A stretch of DNA of 25,723 nt, from positions 1 through 25,723 of the IMG/VR virus record IMGVR_UViG_3300029394_000350; one strand, written 5' to 3'. Below are positions 4,179-24,382 of this stretch, in pieces. The position numbers and the translations under genes were made by a program. The stretch is from a virus. Numbering within the stretch: position 1 is the stretch's first letter; every line of letters starts with the position of its first letter. The notes beneath the pieces were generated by a model that saw only the letters and a list, made by a program, of their open reading frames with translations, searched no databases and was not told where the DNA came from.

Positions 4179-4667
4179 TTATTTCTTGTCGGCGATCTTT
4201 TGGAGCAACGTCAGAACCTTCGCACACCAGAAACAGCCAAGGCAGGAGAAGGCACCTGATAACAAATAGATGAAGGCTAGTGGAAACTGATGATGATAAA
4301 AATTGATTAAAAATAATACAATACCAGCAATAATCGTCATTGCTCCCACTACTTGAAACAACCCCTCTACTGTAATTTTTAGAGGCTCTTGCTCATTCAC
4401 CCAAGCAGGTTTTTTCTCTCTCTCATCTAAAATAAATTCAACAAATCGTTTCTTTTGTTGCCGCTCCGTTTCTTTTTCTTCTGATTTTCTGTTGGTGTTT
4501 TTGGTCAGATGATAAATCCTTCCAAAGGATAGCCACTCCTGACCTCCTTCAGGGCAAACGAGAGTTTCTGACAAGATTTTCCCTTCCTTGTACAAGGCTT
4601 CAAGTTCTTCAAAAGAGTAGGGGCCCTCAGCATTGTTTGAGTTGGAAGCGACGTAATAATTAGCCAT
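4179..4667 (-). CDS. GYF_2 (DUF4339)-domain membrane protein, 162 aa
   Basis: The N-terminus YYVASNSNNAEGPYSFEELEALYKEGKILSETLVCPEGGQEWLSFGRI matches the GYF_2 pattern. A K/E-rich linker follows, then two C-terminal hydrophobic helices (LFQVVGAMTIIAGIVLFLINFY; FPLAFIYLLSGAFSCLGCFWCAKVL). The gene is very AT-rich compared with its flanks. Confidence 0.7.
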   Translation of the reverse strand: MANYYVASNSNNAEGPYSFEELEALYKEGKILSETLVCPEGGQEWLSFGRIYHLTKNTNRKSEEKETERQQKKRFVEFILDEREKKPAWVNEQEPLKITVEGLFQVVGAMTIIAGIVLFLINFYHHQFPLAFIYLLSGAFSCLGCFWCAKVLTLLQKIADKK

Positions 4668-9614: not shown

Positions 9615-10017
9615 GGTTTTGCTTTGTGAAGTATTTGAAAAAATCCACGGCGGCAGGGTCGGTAACAATGAACTCCGGGTAATCACGGGAAGTGAACACC
9701 CTCCGCCCGCCCTGCGGATTGACGGCCTCAACGGTCAGTTCCACGGCTTCCTCCGTCCGCATCGGGTCATCCTCCTCCGGAGCGTAAAACTCTTTCAGCC
9801 GTGCCCACACCTGCACCGCCTGCCAGTCCTCACCCATGCCCACCAGCGCGGCAACTACGGCGGCCATTGCCGGGGCATGGTCCGCTGGTATCTCGTCCTG
9901 CGTATAGCGCGCCGGAGGTCTATATCCGCCCTTGTCCTGATAAATGGGCGTCAGAGTGAATTCCTGCCATGTTCCAGGCTTCGGAAACTGAATTTGTATT
10001 TCTGCGTCGTTCATCAT
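9607..10017 (-). CDS. Hypothetical protein, 136 aa (possible fibre-associated/assembly protein by position)
   Basis: Its ATG overlaps the fibre stop (TAATG). No recognisable motif. Confidence 0.5.
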   Translation of the reverse strand: MMNDAEIQIQFPKPGTWQEFTLTPIYQDKGGYRPPARYTQDEIPADHAPAMAAVVAALVGMGEDWQAVQVWARLKEFYAPEEDDPMRTEEAVELTVEAVNPQGGRRVFTSRDYPEFIVTDPAAVDFFKYFTKQNHE

Positions 10018-11951
10018 TAGAGAGGTATGTTAATGTCCACAAAATCTGCCGTTTCCTCGGATTCAATGGCATTCGTTCCTATCGCGTCCAACCCGTAGAA
10101 AAGCGGGTTGATATTCCCCGGCTGGTAATAGGCATATTCGCCGGGCCCGGCGTTAACGGCTGCCGTTCCGCTGGTGGTGTTGATCACGTCCGTCACCCAC
10201 CTGGAAATGCCGACGCCAGTCTCAAAATTGGAGACGCCGCGGCAGGTGGCAATTTTGTACAGGTTGTTGGTTTGCGCTCCCGTGACCATCAGCCATAGCC
10301 CTCCCAGGTTTTCATAAACGCTGCTGCTGGCAACCGCCTGCTGCTGGTAAATAATCTTGCAGACCGTCCACGGGATGGGTTCGTTATGTGCCGCAGGAAT
10401 AAAACTGGTCGTCGTCTTGACCTGCCACCCATCCGTGGAATTGAGCGCGTAAATCTCACGTACGCGCACCGTATAGCCGTTGCGGGCCGTGTCTCTCACA
10501 TTGTCAAAGGTGATGTCCAGAATCTCCCCGAAATTAAAGGCCAGGCCATTGCCGGGAATAATCGTGTAGGAATCCGTGGTCAGGTCCGTCCTGATTGTTT
10601 TCGCTCCGCGCCCGAAGCCCATCGTCACCTTCGCGGCTGCAGTGGATCTCCAGACAAACGAAAAGCCGGCCCAGGAAGAGTAATTCCATTGGGAAGAGGG
10701 ACCTTCAAAGGGAGCCTGAATGGTGGTGTGAGCTCCCGCGGGAATACCGATGCGGGCCATCTGCCAGGGAACCGTTTTAGTAATTGTCGCCGTCCCGGTC
10801 GTGGTCAGGGAGTCCGTATTCAGAAACGCGGCTGCCGTATAAATATTGGACGCACCTCCCATTCCCGCGGCATAAAGCCGGTTGACGCCGGATTCGCTGG
10901 TGGGAGCGCCCACAGCCAGCGGGACATTGATCCCGCCATTGGCGTTGACGGTGCTTGAAAACGTGGACGCCCCCGCGCAGTTGAAGCTGGCGCCCTGGGA
11001 AATATTCAGGATGCCGGATTCTACCATGAATGTCCCTCGCAGCCAGCCGCCCGATTGGAGATCAACGGACTGATAAAACCGGGTGATTCCGTAAATCTGG
11101 TTCAGGGTCCCGGCGCTTCCGCTTCCGTCCGGGTTGTTGACGACCAGAGGCCCGTTGATAGTAGCCGATTCAGCGGTCAGGGCTCCCCCGATGTTGACGT
11201 CGCCGACGTTGGACGTCAGCGTCCCGGGCTCTCCCTTTTCCCCTTGTAGTCCCTGGGGTCCTGCCGGACCTTCCGGGCCCTGGGGGCCCTCCGGGCCTTG
11301 AGGCCCCGCCGGTCCTGTATCTCCCTTCGGTCCCTGCTCCCCGGTTTCGCCCTGCGGCCCGCGTTCCCCGGTTTCGCCGCGTGGACCTTGCGGCCCTTCG
11401 GGGCCGGTTTCTCCACGTTCACCCTGCGGGCCTGACGGTCCCTGAGGACCAACATCCCCGCGGGGAATCGTGAAATTGAGCAGATAGGATCCCACTTCGG
11501 ACCCCTTGACGGCTTCCGCGTTGGCGGGCGTCCCCGGTTCCCCGGTGGTGACCTGACCCACGGACAGATTAAAATTCTCGGCGTACTTTTTGGCCTGCTC
11601 CGCGTACCAGGCGGCGCTGGACGCGTTGTCAAGCATGACCTGCACGCATCCGCTTCCTTCCGGCAGCTGCACGACGACCGCGCCCGCCACGGCCTGCTGT
11701 TCGTCCGGCAAGTCAGGCGTTACACGGCCCGCAGAAACAAAGCATCCGTAGAGCAGCGGTCTTTCCTCGTTTCCGTCGTCCATGAAGACGTCGTAGGACC
11801 ACCTGCCCGCAGGCACCGAAGCCCAGGAAAGCACGCCGTTACCCTCATCGTCGCGGGAAAAGCCGAACTCGGCGACGCCTGTCTTGAGACGGACAGCGCC
11901 GCGGAGGGTGACGCCGTTCATGTCGACGGGATCCCCCTGAAAATCTACCAC
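10017..11951 (-). CDS. Collagen-like tail/side fibre protein (644 aa from the GTG in the track)
   Basis: 26 uninterrupted G-X-Y triplets ([19 protein letters not shown]...GEKGEPG) flanked by a beta-rich N-domain and a ~400-aa C-terminal domain. The coding signal appears to continue upstream of the GTG ([17 protein letters not shown]). Confidence 0.85.
11226..11459 (-). repeat. Collagen triple-helix (G-X-Y)x26 coding repeat
   Basis: Counted directly from the translation, residues 165-242 of the fibre ORF. It generates shadow ORFs in the other frames. Confidence 0.9.
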
Positions 11952-21360: not shown

Positions 21361-21876
21361 TTAGGGATGGAGTTTGCCGGCGATGGTTTCCAGAGCGGTT
21401 TTCTCGTCTTCCTGCAGCTGGGCGAGCTGCTCAGGGTCCAGCGTGATTTTCCGTTCCAGCGGCGCTCCGGGAACGCCGGCGACGTCCTGACGGACCCGGT
21501 CTCCGAATTTATCAGGAGCGAAGCGGGCGGCGACTTTCAGCCGGGTTTCAATGGCGAGCTTCTTCGCGGCGACGGAGGCGGAGCCGCATTCCGGGTCAAG
21601 GGCGACTTTCGCGGCTTCGTCGGCCAGCTCCTGGCAGGCGTCAATCATAGCTTCCGACTGCGCTTCCCGCGCGCGTTGAATGAGTTTGGAAAACTCCGGC
21701 TTTGTTTCACGCCAGTTCCAGACCGTCCAGACCTCCGGCATGTGGTCATCGGAGCAGATGGATTTCATGGTTTCCCCGTCGGCCAGGCGGGAGGCTATCT
21801 CGGCAGCCAGTTCCTCTGTGTAGAGGCTCGGCCGCCCCGGTTTTCTTTTGGTGGTAGGTTTATTTTTCCTGCGGTT
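21361..21876 (-). CDS. terS: Terminase small subunit (HTH type); the conserved N-terminus has no in-frame start (frameshifted or recoded)
   Basis: The ATG ORF (21361-21768) starts at MKSICSDDHMPEVWTVWNW. The same frame upstream encodes KPGRPSLYTEELAAEIASRLADGET, the hallmark N-terminal HTH of this terS family. That frame is closed by TAG at 21877-21879 with no ATG/GTG/TTG in between. Confidence 0.75.
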   Translation of the reverse strand, partial: NRRKNKPTTKRKPGRPSLYTEELAAEIASRLADGETMKSICSDDHMPEVWTVWNWRETKPEFSKLIQRAREAQSEAMIDACQELADEAAKVALDPECGSASVAAKKLAIETRLKVAARFAPDKFGDRVRQDVAGVPGAPLERKITLDPEQLAQLQEDEKTALETIAGKLHP

Positions 21877-21960
21877 CTATCATAGGAGATAACGGATATT
21901 CAAATCAAGCGCGTTGTTTGTTCTTGATTCGGGGCGCGTGTGTCCCAAACTTTGGTCGAG

Positions 21961-22476
21961 ATGAAACAATGTCCCATCTGCGGAAAGGATGTTCCTCCGC
22001 GCGCGGGCAAGCGCGACAGCGTGTACTGTTCCCGGGCCTGCCTCCAGGCTCACTATGCGGAGGCCTGGGAAACGCTCACATGCCCTGTGTGCGGGAACGT
22101 ATTCCGGGCCCAAAAACTGTGGCGCCGTCAATACTGCTCTGCGGAGTGCGCCAACCGCGCCCAGCGAGGGAGGAAAATCACGTCCGCAGCGTTTTTGGAG
22201 GCCTGCCGGCATCGAGGCGTGCCCGGTCCGCGCAAGCATCCGAGGACAGGAAAATTTGAAACCAATTGCCATGCAAAAGTCTGGCGATTGGAATCACCGG
22301 AGGGCGAGATGGTGGAGGCTCGCAACCTCAAGCTTTACATGACCACCAGATTCGGCGACGATGAGGGCAAAAGGATTTATAGTCTTCTGTCCTGCGCGGC
22401 CGGGCGGTTCCGCAAATCGGGACGCGGCACGGGGGCTGGATGGCGGATTCTGGAAGCTCCATCCGTCCCGGAATAA
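21961..22476 (+). CDS. Double FCS/YacG-type zinc-ribbon protein, 171 aa from ATG 21961
   Basis: Two copies of C-P-x-C-G-x(10-13)-Y-C-S-x-x-C: CPICGKDVPPRAGKRDSVYCSRAC and CPVCGNVFRAQKLWRRQYCSAEC. A basic C-terminal domain follows. It is divergent from terS and followed by a strong terminator. Confidence 0.6.
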   Translation: MKQCPICGKDVPPRAGKRDSVYCSRACLQAHYAEAWETLTCPVCGNVFRAQKLWRRQYCSAECANRAQRGRKITSAAFLEACRHRGVPGPRKHPRTGKFETNCHAKVWRLESPEGEMVEARNLKLYMTTRFGDDEGKRIYSLLSCAAGRFRKSGRGTGAGWRILEAPSVPE

Positions 22477-22480
22477 AAAA

Positions 22481-22511
22481 GGGGCGGCTTCGAAAAAAAC
22501 CGCCCCTTTTT
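22481..22511. terminator. Bidirectional rho-independent terminator
   Basis: AAAAAA-GGGGCGG-cttcgaaaaaaa-CCGCCCC-TTTTT, starting 5 nt after the zinc-ribbon gene stop. Confidence 0.8.
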
Positions 22512-22660
22512 AAGGGAAATGGGCGTTTCCGCCCGGATGATCTTGCGATCGTTTTAATCCACAGCCCCGAAGGGCTGAACGTTCAGAGAGAACGCCTCCT
22601 CCTATCATTTTTTGATGGAGGCGGCAACGAAAAAAAATTCTTCTTTTTTCATTTTTTCTC

Positions 22661-22689
22661 TTGCAATACTAAACATTGTTTAGTATATT
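22661..22689 (+). promoter_or_regulatory. Sigma70-like promoter with embedded 21-bp perfect palindromic operator
   Basis: TTGCAA (22661-22666), a 17-nt spacer, TATATT (22684-22689), preceded by a long A/T tract. The palindrome ATACTAAACA-T-TGTTTAGTAT (22666-22686) fills the spacer. It lies about 70 nt upstream of the acidic-protein ATG. Confidence 0.65.
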
Positions 22690-22758
22690 GACCTTGTTGA
22701 CGGGAGGAAGGGACCAACCGGAGACACAATCCACAACCAAATCAGAAAGAACAAGAAA

Positions 22759-23364
22759 ATGGAAATCACCAACATCAAAGGAATGACGGCCCAGGAAATC
22801 GCTGACGAACTCAATAAGAATGGGTACAGCTACTACGGCGAACGCGCCCGCGCCTGGGAAGGCAGCACTCAGAGCCGCATCTATTTCGGCTGGGACTATG
22901 TCATCATTAACCAGGACGGCACCATCACCAATAACAAGCCGAAAAGAGCCCGCGCACTGACGATTGGAAACCCGGCGGTTGAAGCCATTGAGGAAGTAGT
23001 TACCCCCGCCGCTGAAGAAACCAAAGAGGAAGAAAAGGAAGAGTCCGAAGACAAAATCATCACCACGGAAGACGGAGAAGAAATCAACCTGACCGCTCTT
23101 GAATGCGAATTCGGCAGCTACGACTTTGAAGGCAAGACCTACTATGCTGCTCGCCAAATGGAATTAACCAATCGTCTTTTTGACGGATGCTACAACGACG
23201 CGGAAGAAGGAGAGGAATACATCTCGGAATACTCCGCGCCCGGATACGACGAAAACGGAAACCCCGTGGAAATCTTCATGACTTTCACGCAGGTGAAAGG
23301 TGAAGAGATAGACCCGGAAAACCTTAACTGGTTCCAGGACTCCGACCGCGTTGAAGCCCTCTAA
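22759..23364 (+). CDS. Highly acidic hypothetical protein, 201 aa (anti-defence / DNA-mimic candidate)
   Basis: ATG..TAA ORF. By my count 46 D/E against 17 K/R. Central acidic linker EETKEEEKEESED. No catalytic or DNA-binding motif recognised. Confidence 0.7.
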   Translation: MEITNIKGMTAQEIADELNKNGYSYYGERARAWEGSTQSRIYFGWDYVIINQDGTITNNKPKRARALTIGNPAVEAIEEVVTPAAEETKEEEKEESEDKIITTEDGEEINLTALECEFGSYDFEGKTYYAARQMELTNRLFDGCYNDAEEGEEYISEYSAPGYDENGNPVEIFMTFTQVKGEEIDPENLNWFQDSDRVEAL

Positions 23365-23372
23365 CCATGATT

Positions 23373-23396
23373 CCAGGGCGGTGCATGCCGCCCTGG
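23373..23396 (+). promoter_or_regulatory. Intercistronic 9-bp GC-rich hairpin
   Basis: CCAGGGCGG-tgcatg-CCGCCCTGG between the acidic-protein stop and the HTH gene ATG, with no U-tract. Confidence 0.5.
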
Positions 23397-23403
23397 CACA
23401 GCT

Positions 23404-23604
23404 ATGACTATTCAAGAATTTGTTGATTGGGTGCAGTCCAGATACCATTTGCGATCCAAAACTTCTGCGGTCAAAAAGGCTGCGCAAGTGTTGCGTGTGA
23501 CGGAAATGGCGGTGTGGCAATGGTTGGGCGGGTCCAGAAAAACGAGTCCTTCCATGGAGCTGTTGATGGAGCTAATCACCCGTCACGGATTGCCGGAAGA
23601 ATAG
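23404..23604 (+). CDS. Small HTH DNA-binding protein (Cro/Aca/YdaS-like), 66 aa
   Basis: KKAAQVLRVTEMAVWQWLGG fits a helix-turn-helix. Its size and position after an operator-controlled promoter suggest an autoregulator. Confidence 0.6.
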   Translation: MTIQEFVDWVQSRYHLRSKTSAVKKAAQVLRVTEMAVWQWLGGSRKTSPSMELLMELITRHGLPEE

Positions 23605-23607
23605 GCC

Positions 23608-23641
23608 TATACGAGATTCCAGGGTATACGAGATTCCAGGG
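23608..23641. repeat. Perfect 17-bp tandem duplication TATACGAGATTCCAGGG x2
   Basis: Copies at 23608-23624 and 23625-23641, filling the gap between the convergent HTH gene and DnaC-like gene. Confidence 0.9.
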
Positions 23642-24382
23642 CTATTCCCGGGGATGGTAATTGATCTCGCGGTAGGATTTCCAACCACAGGTGATGATGG
23701 TGCCGCAAAGGTGGATGCGGGAAACAATGGCCGGCCCGAGTCGATCTTCAAGGGCGGCGGGGCTGTAGTTGGAGATGATGATGGTCGGTTTGCCGTTCTG
23801 GTGCCGATAGTCAATGAGCCTTTCCAGCGCGGCGCCTGCAAAGTCCGTGTCCTTGACCTCGTGATACTCGTCCAGCACCAGAAGATACGGGGCCTTGTAT
23901 CGCTTCATAACATCGGATTCCGAGCCGTTGCCGTTAAACGTCTCTCTCAAGTCCATCGTGTAATCATAGGCCTTGGTATAGAGGACGCGCCTCTTTCGCC
24001 TGTACATGAGGCGTCCAAGAAACGTGCTCAATACCGTTTTCCCGGTGCCGTATCGCCCGTTCAGTACAATGATACTCCCAGGCGTCAAAACGAGGCGGTA
24101 GGCATCACGCAGGGCTTTCTTCCATGGTTCCCCGGTTACTTCGTCAAGGCAATCAATAGCTCGGCGGGGAAAACCGCGGTCAATCAGGCCAAGGCGTTCG
24201 TATGCCGCTCGGCGTTCTTCTTCCCGCTGCTTTTCAGCAGCCAGAGCTTCCGCTTCAAGCTCTTCAATGCTTCTTCCGTCGTCCTCGGCAAGAAGGGTGA
24301 TGGATTCCAGGAGGCTTTCAAGATTAACTCCCTTCAGTCCTCCCTGGGGTTTAATGGGTTCGTCAATCTTTCCAGAGGTCAT
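23642..24382 (-). CDS. DnaC/IstB-like AAA+ ATPase (helicase loader), 246 aa
   Basis: Walker A GRYGTGKT, Walker B LLVLDEYH, sensor-like IIISN. It overlaps the 3' end of the upstream replication gene. Confidence 0.85.
   Translation of the reverse strand: MTSGKIDEPIKPQGGLKGVNLESLLESITLLAEDDGRSIEELEAEALAAEKQREEERRAAYERLGLIDRGFPRRAIDCLDEVTGEPWKKALRDAYRLVLTPGSIIVLNGRYGTGKTVLSTFLGRLMYRRKRRVLYTKAYDYTMDLRETFNGNGSESDVMKRYKAPYLLVLDEYHEVKDTDFAGAALERLIDYRHQNGKPTIIISNYSPAALEDRLGPAIVSRIHLCGTIITCGWKSYREINYHPRE

Follow-up and report, generated by a model that had tools for sequence, protein, structure and literature searches.

The DNA analysed here, a stretch of 25,723 nucleotides from IMG/VR virus record IMGVR_UViG_3300029394_000350 (positions 1 to 25,723 of that record; hereafter the window), is a temperate Akkermansia phage or prophage. 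A tyrosine integrase is encoded at its start, the Mu-type portal and protease genes and the Sf6-type small terminase gene (terS) all lie on the minus strand, and the methyltransferase region shares 90–92% DNA identity with Akkermansia phages Chantilly and DTMo-2021a. Our subject is a plus-strand cassette at 22661–23604, in which a promoter overlapped by a perfect palindrome precedes a gene for a very acidic protein (gene 1) and a gene for a small helix-turn-helix (HTH) protein (gene 2). A sequence-only reading had proposed it as an acr-aca-like or anti-restriction unit, by analogy with operons in which an anti-CRISPR (Acr) gene is followed by that of an anti-CRISPR-associated (Aca) repressor. 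Comparison with related phages identifies the cassette as a dispensable accessory unit in a hypervariable hotspot between terS and a dnaC-like gene.

Anatomy of the cassette

Both open reading frames (ORFs) that had been proposed were recovered, at 22759–23364 (201 aa) and 23404–23604 (66 aa); they are co-oriented, 39 nt apart and served by one upstream promoter. The flanks are also as described. On the left lies terS (21361–21768, minus strand; Sf6_terminase, 6e-22), and on the right the replication genes, where a DnaC-like loader gene (23642–24382, minus strand; phrog_50, 1e-33) comes after the minus-strand replication initiator and a methyltransferase, so that the unit runs head-on into the DnaC-like gene. 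These two genes form the left and right anchors of the slot. The unit is not the sole plus-strand feature of this gap, as had been thought, since an ORF for a zinc-ribbon protein lies upstream of it.

The cassette promoter (22661–22689, plus strand), located by a consensus scan, has the −35 hexamer TTGCAA at 22661–22666, a 17-nt spacer and the −10 hexamer TATATT at 22684–22689. The sigma70-like elements are therefore present as claimed, although the match does not reach significance by itself. What argues for a real promoter is conservation across loci, as TTGnnn and (T)ATATTGA recur at equal spacing before different cargo genes in related phages. The palindrome reported within the promoter was likewise verified: ATACTAAACATTGTTTAGTAT (22666–22686), a perfect 21-bp inverted repeat of the form ATACTAAACA-T-TGTTTAGTAT, extends from the end of the −35 hexamer into the start of the −10 hexamer and occurs once in the 25.7-kb window, where none is expected (it is absent from 100 shuffles). 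Strong comparative evidence marks it as the predicted binding site for a dimer of the gene 2 product. As it overlaps both promoter hexamers, we infer that binding of the gene 2 HTH would repress transcription.

Downstream of the promoter, the A-rich 5′ leader and translation-initiation region (22690–22758, plus strand; …GTTGACGGGAGG…CAGAAAGAACAAGAAAATG) is conserved in an alignment of related loci and is shared by different cargo genes, as the sequences upstream of 17 of them show. Every unit has the same block ahead of its first cargo gene, i.e. a T-rich region, TTGnnn, the palindrome, (T)ATATTGA and GTTGACGGGAGG…CAGAAAGAACAAGACAATG. An RNA element was considered as an explanation for the leader and rejected, because the leader has no significant fold (z = −1.4) and an Rfam search returned no family for it, only far-sub-threshold matches keyed on the terminator hairpin.

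Gene 2 (23404–23604, plus strand) encodes a 66-aa Cro/XRE-like protein that had been described as a minimal HTH. The register of its matches bears this out, while the matches themselves are all sub-threshold: Pfam gives P22_Cro and YdaS (both at 0.022), PHROGs gives phrog_35 ‘transcriptional repressor’ (0.003), and a PDB profile search gives 2a6c (0.03) together with N15 Cro and P22 C2, all of them aligning AVKKAAQVLRVTEMAVWQWLGG with helix 2-turn-helix 3 of Cro/XRE proteins. An AlphaFold2 (AF2) model of gene 2 from six near-identical sequences, with a predicted local distance difference test score (pLDDT) of 79, has helices 2 and 3 merged; this model and its Foldseek search were uninformative and were counted neither for nor against an HTH. 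Judged by its sequence matches and its position, gene 2 is the predicted autorepressor of the cassette promoter. A Cro/CI immunity switch, in which gene 2 would be the phage Cro, was rejected, as there is no divergent repressor partner beside the operator: what lies upstream is a terminator and a gene in the same orientation, and the window has no second copy of the operator.

The YdaS match also raises the question of a toxin-antitoxin or addiction-like pair that stabilizes the prophage, the HTH protein being the antitoxin and gene 1 the toxin, or the reverse. A two-gene autoregulated operon with a palindromic operator would suit such a pair, as would the ribbon-helix-helix (RHH) antitoxin-like N-termini in some relatives of the C-terminal domain of gene 1. 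However, the match is to a protein named ‘toxin YdaS’ that is actually a Cro-like HTH, Pfam and PADLOC assign gene 1 to no toxin family or domain, and toxins do not typically carry a net charge of about −29. The regulator standing last, the in-frame fusions between cargos and the many cargos per HTH are a poor fit to a co-evolved pair. With no toxin family for gene 1, and with the YdaS match being to the Cro-like HTH itself, we rejected the pair as the primary reading and regard it as very improbable.

Between cargo and regulator, the sequence contains a GC-rich hairpin, CCAGGGCGGT-GCAT-GCCGCCCTGG (23373–23396, plus strand), which has no clear U-tract. Hairpins of other sequence stand at the same place after the C-domain gene in three related loci (L029, L044 and L055). 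The hairpin is a candidate attenuator or mRNA stabilizer that would raise the ratio of cargo to repressor; no terminator follows gene 2. We consider it very probable that the regulatory part of the cassette has been read correctly, i.e. that promoter, palindromic operator, cargo and hairpin are followed by an HTH protein acting as the repressor.

Regulator retention and cargo exchange

To place the cassette among its relatives, a survey anchored on terS collected 46 related IMG/VR loci and three metagenomic contigs; the slot counts cover the 35 loci that hold both terS and the DnaC-like gene. The slot is empty (194–221 bp) in 11 of the 35 and filled (1.06–2.8 kb, plus-strand genes) in 24, and the cassette has a GC content of 0.44–0.52 against 0.55–0.64 in the flanks. 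Clustering of the slot ORFs revealed an HTH of the gene 2 family in all 24 filled slots, so that the expectation of a conserved HTH gene beside variable upstream genes was borne out. At least eight unrelated cargo types are found upstream of it. The commonest is the C-domain alone (107 aa), equivalent to the C-terminal half of gene 1, and the N+C fusion (201 aa) is present in the window, L019 and L023. The remaining types are a fusion of pentapeptide repeats with the C-domain (267 aa), a 122-aa pentapeptide protein with a 102-aa orphan (g102), the N-domain of gene 1 joined to an unrelated tail X (295 aa), a 94-aa orphan (g94), a pair of 93-aa and 100-aa orphans (g93 and g100), and a 105-aa orphan (g105). 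Pentapeptide repeats excepted, no cargo had a Pfam match. PADLOC gave no significant match for gene 1, the zinc-ribbon gene or seven other cargo proteins and only a 13.6-bit HTH-type match for gene 2, and a known anti-phage defence system was rejected as the primary reading on this basis.

The cassette is accessory and modular, its anatomy recurs between loci, and its operator and regulator co-vary. The palindrome keeps a fixed position between −35 and −10 across the related loci and falls into four sequence types, each of which travels with a different HTH variant. Type A (ACTAAACAwTGTTTAGT, 13 promoters) is found with type-A HTH proteins of 66–77 aa, type B (TAGTATACATTGTATACTA; twice in L003, and in L004 and L005) with a type-B HTH of 66 aa, type C (GTTACTATAAATTTTATAGTAAC, 7–8 promoters) with HTH proteins of 434 or 311 aa, and type D (CATACTATC-N5-GATAGTATG; intact in L012 and L021 but degenerate in L020 and L040) with an HTH protein of 196 aa. 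Types A and B differ at two arm positions, both changes being mirrored in the opposite arm, and the centre is free to vary between T and A in type A and between T5 and A5 in type D, a pattern such as a predicted dimer-binding site would allow. The type-B HTH is 42% identical to that of the window and differs from it in helix 2-turn-helix 3, LLDTTKACISHW against VLRVTEMAVWQW. The HTH of L054 has a type-B-like backbone but the VTEM helix motif, and it is paired with a type-A operator. Whatever the function of the cargo, the four operator/HTH pairs offer a compact natural series for the study of repressor-operator co-evolution.

In L003 and L054 a second, identical operator-promoter stands before the next cargo unit. 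The regulator may there control a neighbouring operon as well, as has been reported for Aca proteins, which include RHH members (PMC13551039).

The gene 2 family itself takes three forms: 66–77 aa, 196 aa with an acidic N-terminal part before the HTH, and 311/434 aa with multiple HTH units. The longest, HTH434 (L029, L044–L052) and HTH311/315 (L002, L055), contain 4–9 tandem HTH units over 311–434 aa, recognizable as HTH_23, HTH_28 and Sigma70_r4-like repeats, and are paired with their own 23-bp palindrome. In HTH196 (L012, L020, L021, L040) a very acidic N-terminal part of ~130 aa is joined to an HTH of the gene 2 family, and its gene comes after the 94-aa orphan behind a type-D operator. Recalling AcrIIA1-type fusions, HTH196 may combine cargo and regulator in a single chain.

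The A-rich leader …AAATCAGAAAGAACAAGACAATG recurs before different cargo genes, internal ones included (L032, L012), and inside one pentapeptide + C-domain fusion (P0006) it is kept in-frame as the ‘fossil’ peptide TGEKTETQSKRKTKKM. The leader looks like a shared translation-initiation and recombination module and is likely to be a homology arm for cargo exchange; recombination within the HTH gene and the conserved promoter/leader would move cargo from phage to phage. At the other end of the cassette, two tandem copies of the 17-bp repeat TATACGAGATTCCAGGG (23608–23641; 100% match by Tandem Repeats Finder) abut the stop codon of the DnaC-like gene. The copy number is one in L003 and L020, two in the window, L013, L026 and L029, and at least five in L012, whereas empty slots lack the repeat altogether. 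An iteron, the scar of a recombination event and a boundary of the cassette are all conceivable explanations for it.

Hotspots of temperate phages and satellites (P2/P4; PMC9122126) and classical morons likewise occupy a fixed position among conserved core genes, with nothing there in some relatives and unrelated cargo in others, and their cargo brings a promoter and terminator of its own and departs in GC content from its surroundings. The cassette could be a lysogen-expressed moron of benefit to the host, whose cargo, transcribed from the prophage, excludes superinfecting phages as a new defence or superinfection-exclusion protein or alters host physiology while the HTH sets its level. The promoter of its own, the upstream terminator, the lower GC content and the presence/absence polymorphism all agree with this, hotspots of this kind are known to hold defence systems (PMC9122126), and the window, with its integrase, represents a temperate or integrated phage. 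Yet the P2/P4 hotspots mostly hold recognizable defence systems, whereas the orphans found here are small, acidic and domain-poor, without a PADLOC defence match or an enzymatic or membrane signature, and share one dedicated regulator, operator and leader scaffold. Autorepression across −35 and −10, with the regulator last, is typical of burst-type early expression and not of steady lysogenic expression. In addition, distant relatives lie in early-gene arrays on a ~70-kb phage contig with a VapE-like gene and no integrase in the stretch examined. On balance the moron seems to us an unlikely, though by no means negligible, account of the cassette.

The right anchor of the slot is itself variable. 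In eight of the 11 empty slots (L016, L017, L024, L025, L027, L028, L037 and L043) the DnaC-like gene is another allele, ~50% identical with residues 70–240 aligned, and the same divergent allele accompanies a filled slot in L021 and L022. Divergent DnaC-like alleles beside the hotspot indicate that the replication module itself is mosaic there.

The acidic two-domain protein

The count of 46 D/E against 17 K/R residues given for gene 1 proved exact, and its pI is 4.1, the net charge being that quoted above. Judged by its homologues, gene 1 is an in-frame fusion of two separable mobile phage domains, both of which also occur as free-standing phage proteins of 75–110 aa. The homologues comprise 158 cluster representatives at E ≤ 1e-3. 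About 25 match aa 1–82 only and are mostly free-standing, while about 130 match aa ~100–201 and are mostly of 85–110 aa, some reaching ~140 aa with an N-terminal RHH (in one such C-domain relative, P0087, RHH_10 matches at 2.5e-5).

An AF2 model built from a 59-sequence alignment (pLDDT 91.6) reveals two compact domains joined by a low-confidence linker. The N-domain (aa 1–82; 22759–23004, plus strand) is alpha/beta, with pLDDT 91–97 except around aa 61–70, and has free-standing counterparts of 75–90 aa. The linker (aa 83–99, TPAAEETKEEEKEESED; 23005–23055, plus strand) is acidic, with pLDDT 66–71. The C-domain (aa 100–201 plus stop; 23056–23364, plus strand) is mostly beta, with pLDDT 92–98, and very acidic (22 D/E against 5 K/R in aa 113–201). 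Stand-alone C-domain proteins begin MNDNKIITTEDGEEINL, which corresponds to aa 98–111 of gene 1, and at the junction the acidic linker is followed by DKIITTEDGEEINL, the N-terminus of the stand-alone protein. By this alignment the linker is the fusion joint, connecting the N-domain gene to codon 3 of a stand-alone C-domain gene, and such a junction indicates that the fusion arose by joining neighbouring ORFs of a cassette. Most relatives have the stand-alone 107-aa C-domain, P0006 and P0010 have the pentapeptide-repeat fusion, and P0004, a 70%-identical orthologue, has kept the fusion of the window. Irrespective of function, the fusion shows operon neighbours becoming a two-domain protein.

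In having counter-defence-type modules in one polypeptide (here N+C and pentapeptide+C), gene 1 resembles the polyvalent proteins of Iyer et al. 2017 as cited in PMC13551039. It differs from them in being very small (201 aa, two modules) and not obviously virion-delivered, and it is no part of a giant multidomain protein, having come about through stop-codon loss inside an operon.

The structure prediction and Foldseek search suggested for the 201-aa protein thus yielded a confident model and no significant PDB fold match. Searches of Pfam, PHROGs and PADLOC with gene 1, and of Pfam and PHROGs with the domain alignments, gave sub-threshold noise (DUF1176 at 0.0076) and one match to the uncharacterized phrog_12732, from one of 19 N-domain relatives, which is the sole PHROG match. 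A PDB sequence-profile search with both domains gave chance matches only (lectin repeat, SNF2, nanobody). In tblastn searches of annotated phages the N-domain had no match and the C-domain one, a hypothetical protein in the lysis-integrase accessory region of Paenibacillus phage BN12; neither domain had a match in plasmids. A homology search with the two-domain alignment added only further Akkermansia relatives, and its profile lost the N-domain. In none of these searches did gene 1 show homology to a replication, recombination or structural family. The description of the protein as novel holds in that it is unannotated, but it is not a single novel protein, being composed of two widespread domains.

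More distant relatives offer some hints of context. A narrower C-domain sub-family alignment gave seven loci. At one locus (L064, 5472–6868) a C-domain relative lies two genes from ArdC (ArdcN 2e-30, MPTase-PolyVal 2e-45) and a DUF1281/Api92-like gene, and at another (L063, 2739–3524) one directly follows an orphan D12 Dam methylase; both neighbourhoods resemble small islands of anti-restriction genes in uncultured phages. In two unrelated phages (L059 and L062) the C-domain gene belongs to a unit divergent from terS/terL, as in the window, and on two unrelated contigs (L010 and L069) an HTH gene stands two genes downstream of an N-domain gene.

Long arrays of small early genes also harbour distant relatives of both domains, a setting compatible with an early host-takeover function unconnected with immunity. 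In that case the acidic domains would bind a housekeeping protein of the host (RNA polymerase, a nucleoid protein or gyrase, for example) and redirect it, and the HTH would be a generic autoregulator of early genes. The fusion to pentapeptide repeats points the same way, as the best-known cellular role of that fold is gyrase binding (Qnr, MfpA). Against this, a third of the close relatives do without the cassette and the cargo is swapped as a whole, a pattern that belongs to arms-race genes and not to core takeover functions, and the ArdC and orphan Dam methylase neighbourhoods point to restriction evasion. We judge host takeover to be quite unlikely.

The RHH in some C-domain relatives recalls Arc and Mnt, and with them a further alternative. 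In P22 the Pant-arc-ant module has a small repressor that gates the strong promoter of a protein-binding effector, away from the immunity region and among late genes. By the same logic the cassette would be a switch of the P22 immI type (Pant-arc-ant, mnt), with gene 1 an antirepressor directed against the main repressor of the prophage or of a co-resident, and gene 2 the repressor of gene 1. A small repressor gating a strong effector promoter outside the main immunity region is common to both. Unlike immI, the cassette has no Ant, Arc or Mnt homology, no second divergent repressor and a variable cargo, and gene 1 shows no similarity to the Ant, KilAC, Bro or Rha antirepressor families. Eight unrelated cargos on one regulator and slot, with a third of the relatives lacking the cassette, are hard to fit to a partner-specific antirepressor, and C-domain relatives occur in phages of very different backbones. 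Such a switch is, in our view, highly unlikely.

A possible counter-defence role and the neighbouring features

The overall explanation that we favour, with roughly even confidence, is a self-contained accessory cassette that most likely serves counter-defence. The acr-aca-like architecture put forward by the sequence-only reading is strongly supported by the HTH in 24 of 24 filled slots, the variable cargo and the palindrome that co-varies with the HTH type. The counter-defence role taken by itself, which we place a little short of even, is suggested by this architecture, the arms-race turnover of the cargo, its acidity, the pentapeptide, RHH and HTH fusions, and the ArdC and Dam neighbourhoods.

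In the mechanism we propose, the sigma70-type promoter would fire when no repressor is present, e.g. right after DNA entry or on induction, and the transcript would carry the cargo gene followed by the small HTH gene. The HTH protein would build up, probably to a lower level owing to the GC-rich hairpin between the genes, until its dimer bound the 21-bp palindrome over −35 and −10 and closed the promoter. A burst of cargo would be followed by tight repression, the burst kinetics being deduced from the gene order and operator. The acidic protein may be a stoichiometric inhibitor of a component of host immunity, with gene 2 in the role of an Aca. Type I-C and/or II-C CRISPR-Cas systems are present in most Akkermansia muciniphila isolates (PMC9241678), and BREX and restriction-modification (R-M) loci have been reported in the species (PMC10799925), so that a plausible target for the cargo exists among these systems. 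More speculatively, if packaging ran from near terS into the late genes, the cassette would be the last part of the genome to be packaged and the first to be injected, an order well suited to an early burst of anti-defence protein.

The likeness to acr-aca operons (Aca1, Aca2, Aca10, Aca14; PMC6765145, PMC9410906, PMC8633003, PMC13551039) is extensive. Their acr promoters are repressed by Aca proteins through inverted repeats (PMC6765145, PMC9410906), which lie over core promoter elements as the palindrome does here. One or more small, often acidic, orphan genes precede a gene for a small DNA-binding repressor that comes last, the regulator is constant while the cargo varies between mobile elements, and single-chain cargo-regulator fusions have candidate counterparts in HTH196 and the RHH-C-domain proteins. 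The cassette differs in that gene 2 has no detectable relation to a solved Aca and the cargo none to a known Acr, and CRISPR inhibition by its cargo is putative. It differs also in having four co-evolving operator/regulator specificities within one phage lineage; and in the literature surveyed no acr-aca locus is described for Verrucomicrobiota.

Several observations weigh against this interpretation. Gene 1 has no sequence or fold similarity to a known Acr or to any other characterized anti-defence protein, with no Pfam or PHROG match to one and a best Foldseek E value of 0.15 against the PDB; against BFVD its model found only uncharacterized phage proteins (best E = 1e-3). The PDB holds structures of Aca1, Aca2 and Aca10 (PMC8633003, PMC8434428, PMC9410881), and the PDB profile search with gene 2 matched none of them, only a generic HTH protein and Cro/C2 at E ≥ 0.03; the HTH assignment is itself sub-threshold and the AF2 model shows no canonical HTH. 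The consensus scan found two sigma70-like matches where 1.1 are expected, so that the match is not significant alone, and for Verrucomicrobia there are as yet no established promoter rules. ArdC and Dam were each found beside a relative only once, and most distant relatives simply lie in arrays of small unknown early genes. Finally, lysogen-expressed morons and immI-type antirepressor modules are likewise built from a promoter, an orphan gene and a repressor.

The related suggestion of a DNA mimic of the Ocr or ArdA type found no support, as gene 1 has no Pfam match to either and no PDB fold match. The resemblance to Ocr (T7 gp0.3) and ArdA lies in the extreme negative charge (pI about 4), the small size and the early or accessory position, and in one variant of the cassette the C-domain is joined to pentapeptide repeats, which are likewise a DNA-mimic fold. 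Gene 1 is, however, predicted to consist of a small alpha/beta and a beta-rich domain, with no Foldseek or Pfam match, and charge alone does not show DNA mimicry.

A bolder form of the counter-defence proposal, which we put forward only tentatively and with less confidence than the role itself, is that gene 2 represents a new Aca-like regulator family, with at least four operator specificities and single-chain and multi-HTH forms, that anchors the exchange of at least eight unannotated inhibitor modules among Akkermansia phages by way of a common promoter/leader scaffold. The two domains of gene 1 would then be new, widespread anti-defence folds, fused as a bivalent inhibitor of A. muciniphila immunity (type I-C/II-C CRISPR-Cas, R-M or BREX).

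If the anti-defence role is correct, the cassette would be, within the literature surveyed, the first regulator-anchored counter-defence locus for phages of A. muciniphila, a gut commensal under development as a probiotic. Guilt-by-association mining in Verrucomicrobiota would gain a new ‘anchor’ gene, and about eight small orphan proteins would become candidate inhibitors of type I-C/II-C CRISPR-Cas, R-M or BREX, a set that includes two widespread unannotated domain families and a phage pentapeptide-repeat protein. If it is not, the region is still an ordinary, well-delimited moron.

Upstream of the cassette, the zinc-ribbon gene occupies 21961–22476 (171 aa, ATG start) or 21940–22476 (178 aa, GTG start) on the plus strand. 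This ORF has weak Zn-ribbon Pfam matches, two CxxC…CxxC motifs and a match to phrog_1271 (‘HNH endonuclease’, 1e-11) over the Zn-ribbon part only. Among the 35 slots it is full-length in seven and a 46-aa remnant in six, always at the left end. It is a separate accessory unit of the same hotspot, outside the operator-controlled unit and with its own terminator.

That terminator (22476–22511) is a bidirectional intrinsic one whose hairpin AAAAAGGGGCGG...CCGCCCCTTTTT has the form A5-GGGGCGG ... CCGCCCC-T5, its stem being flanked by an A-run and a T-run. Its inverted repeat is of 15 nt and 93% complementary, it folds at −33.4 kcal/mol (z = −2.87), and it is kept in L001, L002 and L013. The hairpin described as insulating the cassette is therefore real, but it belongs to the zinc-ribbon gene, which it ends; it probably also stops minus-strand read-through from the replication operon into the late operon. 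Between this terminator and the cassette promoter, positions 22562–22586 contain the hairpin CAGCCC-CGAA-GGGCTG and an overlapping perfect 12-bp palindrome, CTGAACGTTCAG, both of which are kept in L001, L013, L015, L022 and L035.

Elsewhere in the window, a protein with a GYF_2 domain is encoded in the structural region (4179–4667, minus strand), and a 644-aa protein with collagen triple-helix repeats (10017–11951, minus strand) is probably a tail fibre.

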